Source: a virus. From it: 22,536 nucleotides of DNA. Position 1 is the stretch's first letter. The number at the start of each line of letters is the position of its first letter. Below are positions 1-17,858 of the stretch, piece after piece. Location of the stretch: UHGV virus genome UHGV-0277527; one strand, 5' to 3'. The translations under genes were made by a program, and so were the position numbers. Below the pieces are notes generated by a model that worked only from the letters and a program-made list of their open reading frames with translations, did not search any database and had not been told where the DNA came from.

Positions 1-797
1 AAATTTGATAATGAGATATACTTACTGTAATGTGAATCATCACTAGAACCAAAGTTGCTTACAAGCATACCGTTATCATTATAATATCCACTCTCAAAAA
101 GAGTAATATCTGAAAGCATGTTGAATACGCAACCGCATCCATCTATAATTTTTTGCTTTGCCCTCTCAAATGTTTCATCGAAATTTTGAGGTATAATTAA
201 TGTTTTTTTTATGCCATATACCTTACCTGGAACTCCAATTATTTTTTTGTTGCTATTAAATGCCTCTTTTATTCCTGCTTGAATGTAGTTAGAGCAGTCA
301 ATATCTGATGTATTCCCATTAATGTCTGGCGGTATGAAATCATCAAAAGAAAGTGTTTCCCTTAATTTAATTAATGATGTCGTGCCTTTTGCATTGTTTT
401 CACTCTGAATGAATCCTATATATTTTGAACCATCGTTTCCAGACAATCTTTCTTCAAGCTGATCAGGGTCATACTTCAGCACATTAGGGAAATAGAATTG
501 CTGAGCACCATATGCATCATAAATAGCCATAGAGTGGCCTTGCACAGTTACGAACTTGGCAATCTGTCCGTTATATACAGGATAACCAGCGGCGTTAATG
601 ATGATTGGCTGCGAAACAGGAACGTGAGAACCGTCTTCATTCTCTACATAAACCTGAATCTGGTTTTCAGGATTTACCGGATCCGTGTCAATTTTTCCGA
701 TATAAATTTTGCCATTGGCATTTGCTTTAAACGAGCGAGCTAAAGTAAATAACTGACTTGGTTGTGAAACAACTACGTTGTATAATTGTTCTGGCAT
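1..797 (-). CDS. Tailspike protein, N-terminal part (P22 gp9-like head-binding domain, then a divergent AT-rich receptor-binding region); 3' end lies beyond the window
   Basis: Minus-strand translation from the ATG at 797-795 gives [59 protein letters not shown]...[27 protein letters not shown], which matches the P22 tailspike head-binding domain as I recall it. The frame stays open to position 1. Not in the ORF track because the stop is outside the window. Confidence 0.85.
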
Positions 798-819
798 AAT
801 AAACATTCCGGAGAAAATA

Positions 820-1320
820 ATGAGTAAGAGACGTCACGAGGTAGTAACTCGGGAGCGCCTTATGGAGGTTCTCGATTACAATAAAGAAACAGGAATTTTC
901 ACTTGGAAAAAGAAATTAAGCGCCAGAGGTGCTGTTGGGAAAGTTGCTGGCACAATTTCTTATGGATATAACGCAATTAATATTGATGGCGTAAGATATT
1001 TTGCACATAGACTTGCCTGGCTGTATGTATATGGCGAATGGCCCAAACAAGAGATTGACCACATTGATAGAAACAGAAGAAATAACGCAATCTCAAACCT
1101 TAGGGATGTCAGCAGAGTCGTAAATGCATTAAATGTCGGACCTCGAAATAGCAATGCTGGAATCAAGGGGTTAACTTTCTGTCAAGCCAGAAATCAATGG
1201 CAAGCTCAGATAAATGTCTCAGGTAAAAACATAACCCTTGGGAGATTCAACACCATTGATGAAGCGGCTATAGCTTATAAGGCAGCAAACATGGTTGCTG
1301 ACCATCTGTTGAGTAGGTAA
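820..1320 (+). CDS. Free-standing HNH homing endonuclease (HNH_3-type motif plus AP2-like DNA-binding domain)
   Basis: Track ORF 778-1320; the start is better placed at the ATG at 820, preceded by GGAG (MSKRRHEVV...). HNH-like motif [21 protein letters not shown]; C-terminal [43 protein letters not shown] resembles an AP2 domain. The gene is AT-rich and antisense to its neighbours. Confidence 0.75.
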
Positions 1321-1388
1321 TGTCTGTCATTTAATTTGCTCCAGATACAAGGAATCGCCGCAGCATGGCTACGGTGAATTTTGGGCAT

Positions 1389-1411
1389 AAAAAAACCCAG
1401 CCGAAGCTGGG
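1389..1411 (-). terminator. Rho-independent terminator downstream of ant (hairpin CCCAGC-TTCG-GCTGGG followed by a T-run on the minus strand); may act weakly in the plus direction for the HNH gene
   Basis: Plus strand reads aaaaaaa-cccagc-cgaa-gctggg; on the minus strand this is a GC stem with a TTCG loop followed by 7 T. It lies about 20 nt past the ant stop. Confidence 0.6.
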
Positions 1412-1430
1412 TCGTTGCGTTGGTTATCTG

Positions 1431-2333
1431 TCAGTAATTATGTACTGAAGGAGGTAATTCTTTATTCTTAAGTCTCATCCATGCGGAAAGATTCGTTGGT
1501 CCGTCTGGCTCATTGATATCAACATCTCGTGTGTGATTAATTAAAACGTCTCTCGCTATATCGATAATACGGGAGAACTCATAACCGCAGTCATGACATC
1601 TGCCGGAATAGTTCGATTGAATTTGTTTTAATGCCGGATACAGTTCGCGGAATAATGCCTGTGAACGGTTGGCATAATCCCATAACCATACAAGGCTGTT
1701 TGCTTCTTTTGCAGAAAGCTCGTTGGTTTTCTTCTCTTGTTTGCCAATGAACTCACCTTCAAGCACTACCCTGTGGATGTACTCTACGGCTTGCGGTATC
1801 TGAGATGCATCAAGCTCTTCAATACTTTCCACATTGAAACGCTGATGAATCATTGCATAAGCTTCTGGGTACATTAGATGCTTTTTGCTGACCAGCATAT
1901 TTACAGCATCACGAAGCGGAGTCCTGTCATCAACAGATGTTTTCTTACGTGCATTTTCTGCCTTTCCCTTTGTCCAGTAGTCATGCAGCACAGTAAAGCA
2001 TTCTTCCTGGTACTGAATCAGTTTATCGCGGATGTCAGCACGAACTTTCTCAGGGTTGATGCTGAACAGCCACCCATTTAACTTCTTCAAAGGAAGGCAG
2101 AGTAACTTACGAAGCTTCCCATCAGCGGCAACCATGTTCATATGAACACAGTTGAATTTGCTAATCTGCTTCATGAGTTTTGTTTGCTGCGTTGACCAGC
2201 TCATTCCAAGGTTTTCAACGATTGGCTTCATCGCAACATATGCAACTCCGGCAGCCATGGCGGTGATAATTTGCTGACCGTTGAATGGTACGTAAGAGGT
2301 GTTCACTGCTTCTAAAATTGCTATACTATTCAT
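1431..2333 (-). CDS. ant: Antirepressor Ant (P22 immI)
   Basis: Track ORF 1431-2399; the start is placed at the internal ATG at 2333-2331 ([21 protein letters not shown]...), giving 300 aa as in P22 Ant, with GGAGA 7 nt upstream. Near-identical to P22 Ant as I recall it. Confidence 0.9.
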
Positions 2334-2334
2334 G

Positions 2335-2405
2335 TTGGTTTTTCTCCACGGATTTACTGACAACCGAAGCCCTGACTGTTCCCGCAGTTGGGGCTTCAAC
2401 TTTAC
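2335..2405 (+). ncRNA. sar: Candidate sar antisense RNA (about 70 nt, complementary to the ant RBS and the arc-ant junction)
   Basis: P22 is known to encode a 68-69 nt antisense RNA at this position. On the plus strand there is a -10-like TATACT at 2322-2327 inside the ant 5' end, and an imperfect hairpin (aagccctgac...gttggggctt, 2365-2398) followed by caacttt. Boundaries are approximate and inferred. Confidence 0.35.
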
Positions 2406-2563
2406 GCGCCAATGCGCCCTTCCTTCTTAAAGCTTTCCATTACTCTCTGATAAATCTCAGAGTTAACAGACCGACCATTCTCTTCCGCCACCTTGCGGAC
2501 CAAATCCAATACTTCTTTAGGCCACCGCAAATTGAACTGCGGCATCTTGCTCATTCCTTTCAT
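2402..2563 (-). CDS. arc: Arc repressor (ribbon-helix-helix)
   Basis: Track ORF 2402-2626; the start is placed at the internal ATG at 2563 ([53 protein letters not shown], 53 aa), matching P22 Arc. The track's upstream ATG at 2626 lies inside the Arc operator. Confidence 0.9.
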
Positions 2564-2579
2564 ATTCACCTCACAATAT

Positions 2580-2596
2580 AGGTCCACCGTGGACCT
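2580..2596. promoter_or_regulatory. Mnt operator (Omnt), 17-bp near-palindrome overlapping the Pant start region
   Basis: AGGTCCACCGTGGACCT read directly at 2580-2596; the half-sites GGTCCAC/GTGGACC are inverted repeats. Matches the P22 Mnt operator as I recall it. Confidence 0.7.
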
Positions 2597-2605
2597 ATTG
2601 AGAAT

Positions 2606-2626
2606 ATAGTAGAGTGCTTCTATCAT
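2606..2626. promoter_or_regulatory. Arc operator (Oarc), 21 bp, within the divergent Pant/Pmnt promoter region
   Basis: ATAGTAGAGTGCTTCTATCAT read directly at 2606-2626, with TAGA/TCTA half-site symmetry. It sits between the arc start (2563) and the mnt start (2654). Confidence 0.7.
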
Positions 2627-2653
2627 GTCAATACACTAACTTGGAGTGATGGC

Positions 2654-2905
2654 ATGGCTAGAGATGATCCGCACTTTAACTTCCGTATGCCTATGGAAGT
2701 AAGGGAGAAATTAAAATTCAGGGCGGAGGCGAATGGGAGATCAATGAACTCCGAGTTGTTACAAATCGTCCAAGATGCTCTATCAAAACCATCGCCTGTG
2801 ACTGGATATCGCGACGATGCAGAACGACTCGCTGATGAGCAGTCAGAGCTTGTTAAGAAGATGGTGTTTGATACGCTGAAGGATTTGTACAAAAAACCCA
2901 CCTGA
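2654..2905 (+). CDS. mnt: Mnt repressor (maintenance of lysogeny; represses ant)
   Basis: 83-aa ORF MARDDPHFNFRMPMEVREKLKFRAEANGRSMNSELLQIVQDALSKPSPVTGYRDDAERLADEQSELVKKMVFDTLKDLYKKPT, which matches P22 Mnt nearly residue for residue as I recall it. Confidence 0.9.
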   Translation: MARDDPHFNFRMPMEVREKLKFRAEANGRSMNSELLQIVQDALSKPSPVTGYRDDAERLADEQSELVKKMVFDTLKDLYKKPT

Positions 2906-2912
2906 AGGTGGG
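2891..2912 (-). terminator. Terminator between the convergent mnt and lipoprotein genes (strong on the minus strand; overlaps the mnt stop codon)
   Basis: Plus strand reads aaaaaa-cccacc-tgaa-ggtggg; on the minus strand this is a GGTGGG/CCCACC hairpin followed by TTTTTT, about 10 nt past the lipoprotein stop. Confidence 0.5.
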
Positions 2913-2921
2913 TCCTATTTA

Positions 2922-3341
2922 TTAGTCTTGCTTTGTTGATGGCATAAGAGATGCGTTTGCCTCTTTTGGCTTCAAGGTATACATCCCACCATTAAAAGGA
3001 TCTACAGCAAGCCAACCAATTAACCCACCAAACACAAGGTTTCCACCAATATACCAGCCATTAGCATTGGCTTTGATTGGCAGGGTAACTGGTTCGTACC
3101 CATCCTTTTCCATAGTGATCTGGTAGCTCTTTTTGCCAAAATAACTACCATCTGACTTGGCAAGAGTTACTCCTTGCGGGGTCTTACCTTGCGCAACAAT
3201 CACGCCTGATTCGTCTTTTACCTTAAAGCTCGCACCGGAAGGATTGCTGTTCACTTGCACAAGCTGCGTTTCGTCACCAACAATAGTTGCGCACCCAGAT
3301 AACAATATAGCGCCAGCAACGACGCCAATAATCCTCTTCAT
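2922..3341 (-). CDS. Predicted outer-membrane lipoprotein with a PEGA-like beta domain and a glycine-zipper-like hydrophobic C-terminus; accessory gene of unknown function
   Basis: Track ORF 2922-3353. Signal peptide with lipobox (MKRIIGVVAGAILLSG|C, Ala at +2). PEGA-like stretch SNPSGASFKVKDESGVIVAQGKTPQGVTLAKSDG...MEKDGYEP. C-terminal GWYIGGNLVFGGLIGWLAV. The start could be 3353 or 3341. Visibly AT-rich compared with the structural genes. Confidence 0.6.
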   Translation of the reverse strand: MKRIIGVVAGAILLSGCATIVGDETQLVQVNSNPSGASFKVKDESGVIVAQGKTPQGVTLAKSDGSYFGKKSYQITMEKDGYEPVTLPIKANANGWYIGGNLVFGGLIGWLAVDPFNGGMYTLKPKEANASLMPSTKQD

Positions 3342-3458
3342 ATCAATTTCCATATTTAAAAAACCGGAAACATCCTAATGACAAACCATTCAAATGTGAA
3401 GTAGGCAAAAGATGTTTACTTTTTTCATGGTATCCTGCTCAAAACTAAGGAGGTTGTC

Positions 3459-3848
3459 GTGAAGCAATTTCTTACTGCTATGTTCTTATTCATATCTTTT
3501 GGGGCTACAGCAGAGTGCTGGGTCGTTGGAGATATGCGCGGAATAAGCTATTCAGAACGAAATAATTTCCATCCGGAAGAAGATGGTTTTAGTGGAACAT
3601 TCATCATTAAGACAAACGGTGAAGATGCCAGCATCACATATTCTGGGACAGATGCGGGCGGCATGGCTTACAAAGCATTGTCTAAAAACTCCATCATAGG
3701 AATCGGCGCGAATGGCGAAACTCAACGCGTTATCGACTCATGGGTAATACATCCTACTGGAACAGTTTTAATGTCAAAAACCATTTCCGGTTATGGAAAT
3801 ATGGATTCAACCAAAGCTTTTGTTGGAAAAGTAAAAAGAAAATGTTAG
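3459..3848 (+). CDS. Secreted (periplasmic) protein of unknown function; accessory gene
   Basis: 129-aa ORF with a GTG start preceded by a strong SD (TAAGGAGG, 5-nt spacer). N-terminal signal peptide MKQFLTAMFLFISFGATA|ECW. No family recognised. AT-rich, and on the strand opposite the late operon. Confidence 0.55.
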   Translation: MKQFLTAMFLFISFGATAECWVVGDMRGISYSERNNFHPEEDGFSGTFIIKTNGEDASITYSGTDAGGMAYKALSKNSIIGIGANGETQRVIDSWVIHPTGTVLMSKTISGYGNMDSTKAFVGKVKRKC

Positions 3849-3872
3849 CGATTGAATCCAATTTCCCATACG

Positions 3873-5714
3873 TTACTGCTGTGTTGCCTCAGTAGCAAGC
3901 AGCGGCCTGATGGCATTTGCAGCGTTACTCAACGCTCTTTCATAGGCTGGCGTTCCAGCTTTAGTGTTTGCCAGACGTAAGAGAGCATTCCTTGCTGCTT
4001 TGGACTCATACAAGCGCATCATTGCACCAAAACCAGCCTCAAGCCCCATTGATACGCCAAGGGTCGCAGTTGCGCCAATCGTCCTTATCCTGTTGGCTTG
4101 CGATTGCCCCGTCTGAGTTACTACATTTGCGGTGTCTGACCTTGCTGTTTGCTGTAGAACTTCATGAAGAGCATCAAGCTCTTTCATGTGCTTTCCAGAA
4201 AAAATAGTGTTGTAAATTTCACCGCCTGACTGAGATTTCAGCTTATTAACTTCAGTGATGAACTTGGCTGGAGAGTCCCCGGCCTTTTCCGCTATTTTGC
4301 TGACGTAAGCTGCACGCATAGCATCTTTCCCTTTATCATCCAATGCGCTCCAGATTCGTTTCACGTCAGATGGTTTTCTGCTTAATACAACAGTATTTAT
4401 AAGTTCAGGACTGGCTTCACTGCTTGCCTTGTTGAGCTTGTTAGCAATGTTTTTATTAAGCACCTTATTATAAACGTTTGCATAATCGGAATTTGCTTTA
4501 AGGTATTTTGCTGCGTCTGACGCACCGAGGTTTTTTGCAACTGCGTTACGAAGGTCTTTTGACATTGCATTCTCTACCATATTGGTAGCTGCTTTTGCCT
4601 GGTTGGGGAAGACCATAGCATCTCCCTGAACATTAGATCTAAATGCTGTTCTGTGCTGACGCAAGAGATCAAACGTAACATCCAAATCAGTTGCAGGGTT
4701 TGCTAATTCTTCACGCAGGTTACGCAAGGATGTAAGCAGGCTTTGATTGGCAGACGTCCCAAGCCGTTCCTGTCTTGCGATCGCTGTATTCAGAGCATTC
4801 ATGGTATTTGTGGTATCAACTGCGGCATTACCCATTTTATTGGTGACGTCATTGATAACAGCGCCAGCGGCATCCTTCCGCCCCCTTAACGTGGTGGTAA
4901 GAGACTTCACCACATCATCAGGGTTGTACTCACCAAAACGGTCAAAATAATTGCTTACCAGCTTACTACGCGTTGCATATTGCTCAGCTCGCTTTGAGCC
5001 TGTCCCGAGCAAAGCCCCCTCAGCATCCTGAGTAAGTCCGCGAGTGAAAGCATTTTTCGGCGGGATAACATCAGATGTCATTGGTGTCACGCCCATCGAT
5101 TCTGATGTGGCAATTTTCTTCACCACTTCTGGCGCAATATCACCTTTTATAGCCGTTATTCCACGCCCTATTCCCTTTGCTGCTGCGGAAAGAACACCCT
5201 GAGCGGCAAGGTTAACTCCGGCATTTTTAGCTGCATTTTGTGCGAAATCGCCTTTCTGATTTGCGGCCTCTGCCAGTGATCCAATAGCCATGCTTCCTGC
5301 CGTTCCAACTCCTGGAACTAAATACCCGCCAATTGTTTCTCCAGCTTGCGCATAAGGGTCTGTCGGTCGCTCGACAGGGCGATAAACATCATCCAAAACC
5401 TTGGGGCCGCCAAGCCCCTGGCTGATTGCATTAATCAGACTTGCGCCCCCCTGCAATACGTCAAATGGTATGTTTACCAGACCACGACCAGCCTGTTCTG
5501 CAATTTGCCCTGCACTTTGACCACCTGTGAGCCAATCACCAGCTTGTTGCATCAATGATGGTTCTTCCCGTGTTGGTGCATTATTGGCCTGATTAACTGT
5601 TTGTTGCTGAACAGCCTGACCAGCAAAATACTCATCAATGGCGGTGCCAATATCTTCGGTGCTCGTACCATCAGGAAAGGTAAATGTCTTACCGTTTGCA
5701 GTTACTTTCATCAT
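3873..5714 (-). CDS. 16: Ejection (injection) protein gp16
   Basis: 613-aa ORF beginning (M)[33 protein letters not shown], matching the P22 gp16 N-terminus and length as I recall it. Start overlaps the upstream stop (ATGATGA). Confidence 0.85.
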
Positions 5715-15688: not shown

Positions 15689-17188
15689 TTAAGTTCTCCG
15701 TGCGATGGGCCTGATTGGGGCTGGTATCTTTTTCTCTTTTGGTTTTTTGATGTCGCGCATCATTTTGGCGAAGCGTCGCATCATGTATGCATAGCGAACG
15801 GCTGATAGCACGTCGTCGTTAAGCTTGACGATCTTCCCGTTTTCATCACGGTGATAGAGGCGGAACTCTTCAAAAAATGGCTCACAGGTGTTGAATACTT
15901 TGAAGCGACCATCGAGCATCATGTCGCGCAATTCAGTGATGCCAGGCTCAACAGCATTACCGCCATCAGGCCATGTCGCATGCTCCTGCAACATCATAAA
16001 ACCAGCGTCCGCGTACTGCCCTTTAAGCTGCTCACCGCCGCCCTTCTCGTGCTGGTTTCCGTCATGAGGCCATGCGGTTGGCACTTTATGCGCCCATGAT
16101 TTAACAGCTCCCCACGCCTGAACGGCTGTTTTTTCTTTCGCCTTCCACACGCGTGAAACGTAGATTGTGTCTGCGTCCTTATCCCACCAAAGCTGAACCT
16201 GCGCCTGTGGGTGATCCCATCCAAAATCCATCCCGCCAATTACGTAGAAGTGATCAGGACACTCGAACGGCTGACACTTAATCGTCTCTTCCGGTATCTG
16301 GAAGATTCGACCGCTACCCATCGTAGGAATACCGCGAGCACGCGCCTCTCTCTCATGCTCAGGATAAGATGCGATGATTTGCTCTTTCTGTTCTTCTGTG
16401 TAGTGCTCAGCGTCGTAGATGGTCATGTTGACCACTTTCTGCGACTTGCTTGGATTCTTCAGGAATTTGGTAACAACGTCAGACATCCCCATCAGCGGGG
16501 TAAACGTCAGAATTGAGAATTGCCCGTATTTGTTGGTACGGGTAAGACCTTCGCCATAAATGCTGTATGGTGGCTCTTCGTCAAACCACACGCCGTGGAT
16601 TGTGTCACCCTGCCAGCGAGCACGGCCTTGCGAGTATGGTTTGAAGTAGCAGATTGAAATGCCATCTTCAACGCCATCAGCCGTGTGATGCTTAACCAGA
16701 AGGTGATCAACAAGGTTCGGAAAGAAAGGAGACTTCTTCCAGCTAATGATGTCTTCTTTCGGTATGGAACCGTAGCCAGGCTCATCATTCTCTTCGATAC
16801 GACCGCACAGGATGCGTTGAGTCGTTTTGGTTACAGTCTCGTTTGTCTCGCCGCCAATCCAGAAGACAACAGGCTCATAGAAACGCTTACCTTTCCACTC
16901 ACCGCCATATTTACCATCAACAGGATAGCCTTTTGTGCCCGGATAACGCCCGGTAAGGTGAAACGCGACTTCAGCAGCACCAGTAAATGACTTACCAAGC
17001 TGGTTACCAGCCATAAAACATCGCTCTGGATAGTCATGTCCGGCGTCGATGAACTCACGCTGTTTGCTGTATGGCGTAAATTCATATAGCAGGTGTGTGT
17101 TACGGTAGTTCTCTTCTTCTTCGAGTAGCTCGAGCAATTCGATTTGCTCTTCGTCGCTCAAGTTATCAAGAATCGCGTCCAGTTCCAC
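15689..17188 (-). CDS. 2: Terminase large subunit gp2
   Basis: 499-aa ORF with a Walker A-like motif ([11 protein letters not shown]); same size as P22 gp2; overlaps the terminase small subunit gene by about 23 nt. Confidence 0.9.
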
Positions 17189-17654
17189 GGTTGAATAGCT
17201 CCTTGATACGAGAGCGCCGCTTATCGCGATCTCCCTTATCAGGTGTCACGTCTTCAACTTGCGACTGCTCTTTGAGGCCCAAATCACGGGCGATGATGTT
17301 AGCGTTGAGAAGGTCAGCGGCTGCGCCAGAGAATTTCTGGTCGTAGATGACCTGTTCTGCTCGCGTAACGACTTCAGATAAATCTTCTCGCAGGCGATAT
17401 GTGCGCCATGTTTCAAGCGTCACATCAATGAACAGAGTGAGGCCGGTAATGGTCATCGCTCGCATCTTGGCGATAGGCTCTTGTATCACTTCACCCTGAT
17501 ACGAGAACGCCTTCATCTCCCATAGCGGGTTAGCTTCCACCCACTCGAAGTATTCACAACAAGCAGCCCACAGCGCCTCAGGCGATTCGAATTTAGGATT
17601 TCGCCCATGACTACTGCGGGCCTCCCAAAATCGGTTGCCCTTTGGTGCTGCCAT
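17166..17654 (-). CDS. 3: Terminase small subunit gp3
   Basis: Track ORF 17166-17660 ([52 protein letters not shown]...); matches P22 gp3, which I recall as starting MAAPKGN. Start is either 17654 or 17660. Confidence 0.9.
17360..17387 (-). other. pac-like packaging initiation site inside gene 3
   Basis: The minus strand reads GAAGATTTATCTGAAGTCGTTACGCGAG (encoding ...[10 protein letters not shown]...). The P22 pac site lies at this position in gene 3 with a very similar sequence as I recall it. Confidence 0.55.
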
Positions 17655-17858
17655 ATTCATCTCACTTAGTTGTTATTTCAGGCTGAGGACTCTTTCGCGC
17701 CTTCAATCAGTGACTGCTTCAGCAATTCGAGTGTGCCAATCGCCTCGCATAAACTGATTTCACCATCGTAATCATGAATGACGCTTTCCAGCCGCTCGTA
17801 TAGCTCTTGAGTAATTGGGAATTTCTTCTCCTTACCCAAATTGATTACGCGGCTCACA

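Follow-up and report, generated by a model that had tools for sequence, protein, structure and literature searches.

How does a nuclease gene come to stand, on the opposite strand, where the tailspike gene of a P22-like phage begins? The question is raised by the virus genome UHGV-0277527, whose 22,536 nucleotides (nt) are called the window below. In the window an HNH-AP2 endonuclease gene lies between the antirepressor gene ant and the tailspike gene, an interval in which P22 has only a terminator annotated ahead of gene 9, much as the initial annotation of this DNA had it (ant terminator and gene 9 leader). Sequence comparisons led us to regard this gene as a free-standing homing endonuclease, the probable core of a mobile cassette at the 5' end of the tailspike gene (probability about 0.75).

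The cassette and the protein that it encodes

The insertion was found to consist of the following parts.

820-1320, plus strand: free-standing HNH-AP2 endonuclease gene, 166 amino acids (aa) from the ATG, with HNH at aa 60-103 and AP2 at approximately aa 114-157
1317-1330, minus strand: stranded ancestral tailspike start, ATGACAGACATTAC (MTDIT), from the alignment with phages 611R6, CUS-3 and N7
1331-1388, minus strand: ancestral gene 9 leader, the same as the leader of empty-site alleles; its Shine-Dalgarno (SD) sequence CTGGAG is the complement of 1339-1344
780-797, minus strand: cassette-borne replacement tailspike start, ATG and codons 2-6 (MPEQLY), substituting for ancestral MTDITA
720-779, minus strand: tailspike codons 7-26, a heavily recoded, mostly synonymous, cassette-linked tract (from the association analysis and the comparison of loci L020 and L067, see below)
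807-813, both strands: putative shared divergent translation-initiation region, TCCGGA at 807-812 and GGAG at 810-813 for the endonuclease ATG at 820
781-786, plus strand: TATAAT, candidate -10 box for the endonuclease gene, within the replacement codons Q-L-Y of the tailspike gene
758-763, plus strand: TTGGTT, weak putative -35 box with 3/6 consensus matches

Alignment of the junction with the insert-free phages 611R6, CUS-3 and N7, the comparison by which the initial annotation had proposed to define the boundaries, placed the insertion point inside the ancestral tailspike open reading frame (ORF), after nt 14/15. The unique insert comprises 780-1316 (537 bp) and stands in place of 4 bp. The insert thus lies between ant and the tailspike gene, as had been stated, but not in the intergenic spacer. 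The plus-strand sequence at 1317-1330, GTAATGTCTGTCAT, is the reverse complement of ATGACAGACATTAC, and the endonuclease stop codon TAA (1318-1320) falls within this remnant. The old SD, the ATG and five codons are left stranded at 1317-1344, where all that the ancestral start still opens is a remnant ORF of 20 codons, antisense to the 3' end of the HNH gene. Because the cassette brings a new initiation region and six replacement codons, the tailspike keeps its full length, unchanged by the exchange of MTDITA for MPEQLY.

The two divergent starts are packed closely together. The 167-codon ORF, the ATG at 820, its distance of 23 bp from the tailspike ATG at 797 and the palindrome TCCGGA had all been given correctly in the initial annotation, and the palindromic TCCGGA/GGAG that it had assigned to both ribosome-binding regions is present at 807-813. 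On the tailspike strand the GGA of this region lies 9 nt ahead of the ATG. Of six further variants that were examined, five keep the region as (T/C)CCGG(A/G)G, and it presumably serves initiation of both genes. An in-frame ATG three codons upstream of the tailspike ATG (804-806, minus strand) would give MFIMPEQ... A tailspike start at this ATG, which begins at 806, was judged unlikely: the GGA abuts it, and the variants of other genera have no ATG there.

The box TATAAT is probably the -10 box of an endonuclease promoter embedded in tailspike codons. The motif CAATTATA/TATAATTG is kept in the Salmonella and Citrobacter variants of the cassette, in which the tailspike frame over the motif is shifted and encodes S-I-I. 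In the same variants TGn precedes the box, which makes it an extended -10. The role of the box is thus argued from the conservation of the DNA, but not of the protein, over TATAAT. On the minus strand, the promoter scan found no promoter-like site from the ant terminator to the tailspike ATG. Antisense read-through of the endonuclease gene by late transcription is plausible; in a P22 model reportedly put forward by Berget, Poteete and Sauer in 1983, tailspike mRNA comes from late transcripts reading through the terminator.

The ORF on the plus strand (778-1320) has a TTG at 778 and the ATG at 820, with GGAG ahead of the latter; started from the ATG it encodes 166 aa plus the stop. The start is ambiguous: the Prokaryotic Genome Annotation Pipeline (PGAP) begins identical genes at Met15 (862-864, plus strand), whereas 820 was used by the authors of the phage Kapi1 genome. 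Pfam HNH_3 (PF13392) matched aa 60-103 with 59.7 bits (cut-off 24.8 bits, E=2.1e-16), and PHROG 99, 'HNH endonuclease', was matched with E=2e-61. Across 57 homologues D80, N89, N93 and N105 were invariant and H81 was conserved in at least 90%; both the catalytic His (general base) and the metal-ligand Asn residues are present. The AP2 sequence profile (PF00847) scored under the Pfam gathering threshold (23.2 bits, cut-off 33.3, E=8.7e-5), and many of the homologues carry precomputed PF00847 matches. An AlphaFold2 model was built from the alignment of the 57 homologues (predicted local distance difference test score, 88.2). Its C-terminal 41-45 residues were superposed by Foldseek on the AP2 domain of TEM1 at 1.1-1.5 Å; the model has the three-stranded sheet and helix of the AP2 fold, superposable on solved AP2 domains, and its HNH fold resembles a solved HNH homing endonuclease. 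A sequence search of the PDB gave marginal matches alone (WRI1, E=0.024; I-HmuI, E=0.076).

These results confirmed that the protein joins an I-HmuI-like HNH nuclease to an AP2 DNA-binding domain at its C-terminus. The combination of HNH and AP2 is a recognised phage homing endonuclease family (PMC10448857). The initial annotation, which had called an HNH-AP2 endonuclease gene antisense between ant and the tailspike gene and would have given up the call if either domain had failed to appear, was therefore correct on the domains and on the gene order. It had also called the gene AT-rich. With 41.1% GC the gene is indeed below the whole window (47.8%), but it is close to ant (42.7%) and above the neighbouring head-binding region (40.2%).

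Two other origins of an HNH gene were considered. An intron-encoded origin of the I-HmuI type was rejected: no intron was found, and the gene lies on the strand opposite to the interrupted ORF. An Rfam scan of window positions 1-4000 (E≤1) gave the sar RNA, two chance matches elsewhere and no group I intron. HNH proteins are also common terminase accessory factors (PMC3592412, PMC5304195), and a packaging-associated HNH such as those beside the terminase genes of cos phages would be another candidate. Here this is extremely improbable, and a terminase-associated role was rejected on position, family and dispensability. Some 15 kb separate the gene from the terminase genes (15689-17660), which lie on the other strand. 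Its family is the HNH_3 plus AP2 homing type and not the zinc-ribbon terminase-associated one, and about 98% of related phages lack it and yet package normally.

Empty sites, constant junction and flanking sequences

BLAST comparison showed that in 611R6, CUS-3, N7 and EC.P3 both flanks match and 533 bp are missing. In the first three phages the matching span is 668 bp, compared to 1201 bp in the window, and ant, terminator, leader and tailspike follow each other with a 100-bp spacer and no insert. Eighty IMG/VR loci with the head-binding domain were retrieved. The site was empty in 63 of them, and the HNH gene was present in all 17 loci encoding the N-terminus MPEQ[L/S]Y and in none of the other 63. 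Among 5426 complete E. coli genomes the cassette was found in 15 and head-binding DNA in 1002; approximately 985 have head-binding DNA without the cassette. The initial annotation had made its homing proposal depend on empty-site alleles among the relatives, and the four phages and the 63 IMG/VR loci supply them.

The junction was identical in 20 cassette-bearing loci. The same cassette end joins two different remnant alleles, ATGACAGACATTAC with the ant terminator upstream and, in eight other loci, ATGTCAGATATCACC with unrelated upstream DNA. In both the ATGACAGACATTAC and the ATGTCAGATATCACC backgrounds, versions without the cassette match right up to the junction. A right-hand homologous crossover at the junction would thus have essentially no substrate. 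Because there is no homology for such a crossover at the constant junction, an end-directed process at the site, i.e. break repair, would be the economical explanation. Identities over the 20 loci, determined from gapped alignments, were 99.35% for the cassette (minimum 98.3%), 90.8% for the head-binding DNA (nt 79-330) and 62% for the right flank. In 21 loci, one cassette type adjoins 17 receptor-binding modules and six upstream contexts.

The flanking sequence was inspected in a near-isogenic pair, L020 (HNH+) and L067 (empty), whose tailspike genes are 99.1% identical. Their 51 mismatches are distributed unevenly: 36 in nt 4-78, eight in 80-190, five in 190-470 and two in the remaining 1365 nt. 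This gradient resembles the footprint expected from co-conversion. An association scan over the IMG/VR loci confined the cassette-linked haplotype to tailspike nt 4-78. Nucleotides 4-21 of the ORF occur in HNH+ alleles only, and nt 27-78 show dense, mostly synonymous recoding. The carrier allele differs, mostly synonymously, at 36 of 78 positions beside the junction; the recoded tract is presumed to be the co-converted or the immunity tract. The comparative data fit homing on two counts: presence or absence is polymorphic at a fixed site, and the cassette is more uniform than its flanks, with a co-conversion signature.

Six cassette-less tailspike genes (L028, L033, L039, L055, L066 and L079; start near position 1480) have MTDSINA as their N-terminus, which exceeds MTDITA by one codon and is similar to MTDSIIA, the replacement start in the Citrobacter variant of the cassette. 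These alleles may be scars left when a cassette was lost, or may represent the ancestral type from which the cassette allele arose.

A scan of genome contigs with the protein gave just two loci, and the wider context was taken from homologous proteins and their encoding contigs. Relatives at 66-84% identity were found in Salmonella enterica, Citrobacter, Mixta calida, Serratia marcescens and Escherichia sp. ESNIH1. All relatives examined are divergent from a Head_binding tailspike gene that has its own replacement start, and in each of them a stranded SD, an ATG and a remnant of 3-7 codons follow the endonuclease stop. Between most variants synonymous sites are saturated and the ratio of nonsynonymous to synonymous substitution rates (dN/dS) is ≤0.08, which points to strong purifying selection on the nuclease. 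Because synonymous sites are saturated between variants of other Enterobacterales, the lineage's occupation of the tailspike-start site is ancient, and only the spread of this cassette type is recent. The insertion had been called recent in the initial annotation; this agrees with the near-identity of the cassette across loci, but not with the age of the lineage at the site.

Locus L079 carries a different HNH endonuclease gene of 179 aa (883-1422, minus relative to the tailspike gene), with approximately 41% identity over the HNH-AP2 core. It is divergent from a P22-like tailspike gene and lies about 58 nt upstream of its ATG, in the leader and not in the ORF. It seems to represent another endonuclease lineage, independent of the first, at this junction.

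Several observations weigh against homing. P22-like phages are highly mosaic at this junction, where the annotators of CUS-3 mark 'boundary sequences' (bsq1/bsq2), and part of the distribution could result from ordinary recombination. The cassette occupies only about 1.5% of the E. coli tailspike loci; a strong driver at equilibrium would differ. The type II recoded block (nt 27-78) is also found in two cassette-less alleles, L028 and L078, and may be an ordinary old allele and not an immunity adaptation. A search for the target site by conservation showed that empty alleles are not better conserved around the insertion point than elsewhere in the head-binding domain; for this reason no target site can be proposed from conservation. 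The consensus promoter scan found Pant, Pmnt and the ant terminator and left the endonuclease promoter below threshold, because its -35 box matches the consensus at only 3/6 positions. The duplicated start (remnant plus replacement), for which homing does not account, could go back to an ancestral arrangement with the endonuclease in the leader, as in L079.

The first two of these observations would also suit passive cargo, i.e. an HNH gene, or a descendant of one, that has no drive of its own and owes its patchiness to mosaic recombination at the boundary between the head-binding domain and immI. The head-binding DNA, more than 90% conserved, is an obvious crossover substrate, the cassette is rare (15 of about 1002 E. 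coli loci), and some copies are decayed. In E. coli EC06 (L006, 3623-4081) a frameshift splits the gene, which carries a pseudogene annotation. In E. coli 30COLEC (L005, 3623-4075) the last approximately 58 nt and the remnant have been replaced, and the copy adjoins an ASCH-domain gene and an integrase gene, not ant. Occasional decayed copies would, however, also fit the life cycle of a homing endonuclease. Passive cargo does not readily account for different remnants and unrelated upstream DNA meeting the cassette at the same nucleotide with no right-hand homology, for the contrast between 99.35% identity in the cassette and 90.8% in the immediate flank, or for a dN/dS of ≤0.08 with intact catalytic residues. 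We consider it unlikely, and homing remains the preferred interpretation.

Proposed mechanism and surroundings of the cassette

Homing would proceed as follows. A cassette-bearing and a cassette-less P22-like genome would come to share a cell, either because both infect it or because one superinfects a lysogen of the other. The enzyme would nick or cut the 5' end of the cassette-less tailspike gene, and repair templated on the cassette-bearing genome would copy the cassette and, with it, some 80-460 nt of the tailspike sequence next to it. The recoding of codons 2-26 would presumably keep the enzyme from acting on the carrier itself. Late transcription, antiterminated by gp23, would pass the ant terminator and cross the endonuclease gene in antisense before reaching the tailspike gene. 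In this scheme we infer cleavage, target site, immunity, promoter and expression timing.

The same cleavage could have been put to another use. The gene might be a domesticated prophage weapon that excludes cassette-less superinfectors by cutting their tailspike gene, or an antisense tuner of the tailspike, with mobility being secondary. The putative promoter apart from the late operon, the immI/moron neighbourhood and the purifying selection across genera are compatible with such a role, as is the weaker appearance of the replacement tailspike SD (GGA, 9-nt spacing) compared to the ancestral GGAG. Competition by homing endonucleases is known from other phages: I-HmuI and I-HmuII act in marker exclusion in SPO1/SP82, and an intron-encoded HNH enzyme acts in PhiPA3 versus PhiKZ. 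Exclusion and homing are, however, two outcomes of one cleavage, which makes this an added role more than an alternative, and the low population frequency speaks against a large benefit. A search of NCBIfam with the endonuclease gave no match; defence-system libraries were not searched. As a replacement for homing, a weapon or regulator is improbable, slightly more so than passive cargo.

The initial annotation had suggested that the insertion could affect tailspike expression or drive exchange of the flanking tailspike module, and both may be so. A broader interpretation joins these elements. The endonuclease lineage would drive tailspike evolution through breaks at the start of the head-binding domain, which would promote recombination that swaps receptor-binding (serotype-specificity) modules, would serve the prophage as a weapon against the tailspike gene of cassette-less superinfectors, and would have its built-in start and hidden promoter as adaptations. 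We regard this as doubtful, though less so than the two alternatives to homing just discussed. If it were true, the replacement start and embedded promoter would let a selfish element live in an essential late gene on the opposite strand.

The interest of the locus comes chiefly from its position at the boundary where tailspike specificity modules swap. Tailspikes set the O-antigen or capsule type that a P22-like phage infects, and their modular exchange is classic phage mosaicism. If the nuclease is site-specific at the conserved tailspike 5' end, it would offer a concrete mechanism for local recombination and for competition between related prophages. The compact layout, with its stranded start, replacement start and embedded promoter box, suggests a way in which a selfish gene can enter an essential coding region and leave its host alive. 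Tests are readily made, since Kapi1 is in culture, as are several relatives without the cassette.

As a whole, the window represents the late region, with minus-strand transcription, of a P22-like (Lederbergvirus) prophage. Judged from ORF size and position, the late genes run in the order terminase, portal, scaffold, coat and ejection proteins, followed by immI. The neighbouring features are listed below.

1-797, minus strand: 5' part of the tailspike gene, ATG at 797, running off the left end of the window
codons 1-113 of the tailspike gene: head-binding domain (Pfam Head_binding, 5e-65)
1389-1413, minus strand: ant terminator, stem-loop 1394-1413 followed by a T-tract at 1389-1393 (terminator scan)
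1431-2336, minus strand: ant, the antirepressor gene and right flank of the insert (Pfam P22_AR_N, 2.9e-45; P22_AR_C, 9.4e-29)
2334-2401, plus strand: sar antisense RNA (Rfam RF00262, 95.6 bits), overlapping the 5' end of ant
2402-2626, minus strand: arc, immI region
2575-2631: divergent Pant/Pmnt promoter-like sites (promoter scan)
2654-2905, plus strand: mnt, immI region
15689-17660: terminase genes (ORF size and position)

The immI region is of the canonical P22 type, and the ant terminator matches the annotated terminators of P22 and epsilon34. Between mnt and the ejection-protein genes there are two small ORFs without a Pfam match (2922-3353, minus strand, and 3459-3848, plus strand), one of 143 aa with a lipoprotein-like signal (...LLSGC) and the other of 129 aa with a hydrophobic, signal-like N-terminal segment. 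They are candidate morons, in the region where P22 carries sieA. At the other end of the window, positions 1-375, the start of the receptor-binding part of the tailspike, have a GC content of just 30-32%, compared to 47.8% window-wide, which suggests a recently acquired or foreign specificity module. The short receptor-binding segment contained in the window had no match at ≥85% nt identity among the fetched HNH+ loci.

Comparison with known systems

The same gene has been deposited before. Kapi1_066, annotated as 'HNH endonuclease' in phage vB_EcoP_Kapi1 (MT813197), encodes a protein of 99.4% aa identity and has the same position and junctions; the ant-tailspike region of Kapi1 is 97% identical in nt sequence to the window. 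The Kapi1 paper never mentions the endonuclease gene. In 15 E. coli genomes the gene appears in RefSeq, as annotation only, under the name 'HNH endonuclease signature motif containing protein', with the shorter PGAP ORF from Met15. In the literature on P22-like phages, tailspikes, the antirepressor and homing or HNH endonucleases no description of this element was found.

The closest type is that of the free-standing HNH-AP2 homing endonucleases of phages (PHROG 99; T5-like, RB16/RB49-type and Felix O1-type phages; 'IPA-HNH' of ICP1), with which the present protein shares an N-terminal HNH_3 and a C-terminal AP2 domain. The HNH-AP2 family was reportedly noted by Magnani et al. in 2004. Like the PHROG 99-type genes, the present one is free-standing, encodes a protein in the size range of approximately 160-180 aa and is patchily distributed. 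Identity to relatives in phage records outside the tailspike-associated clade is at most 46.6% at the aa level. The other HNH-AP2 genes occur in large lytic phages, whereas the present gene is found in temperate P22-like prophages. Unlike them, it interrupts an essential structural gene at its very start, in opposite orientation and with a built-in replacement start.

I-HmuI of SPO1 (PDB 1U3E), a nickase, is encoded in a group I intron, whereas the present gene has no intron at its site. The C-terminal domain of I-HmuI is helical with a helix-turn-helix, that of the present protein is AP2.

SegF, SegG and MobE, of the T4 type, act by 'intronless homing', and MobE splits nrdA in the Aeromonas phage Aeh1. 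With these systems the present gene shares a free-standing nuclease gene beside or inside a conserved gene, presence/absence polymorphism and what appears to be co-conversion of flanking markers. It differs from them in architecture and orientation, since theirs is GIY-YIG or HNH without AP2 and they are usually co-oriented and intergenic. A further shared trait is the location of nuclease genes at boundaries of genetic exchange (PMC10448857). The MobE-type split gives a two-piece protein, whereas the present insertion splits off five codons, which are functionally replaced. The element type, an HNH-AP2 homing endonuclease, is thus known, and GenBank and RefSeq already list the gene as an HNH endonuclease; its target and layout are undescribed, and the advance over the known systems is incremental.

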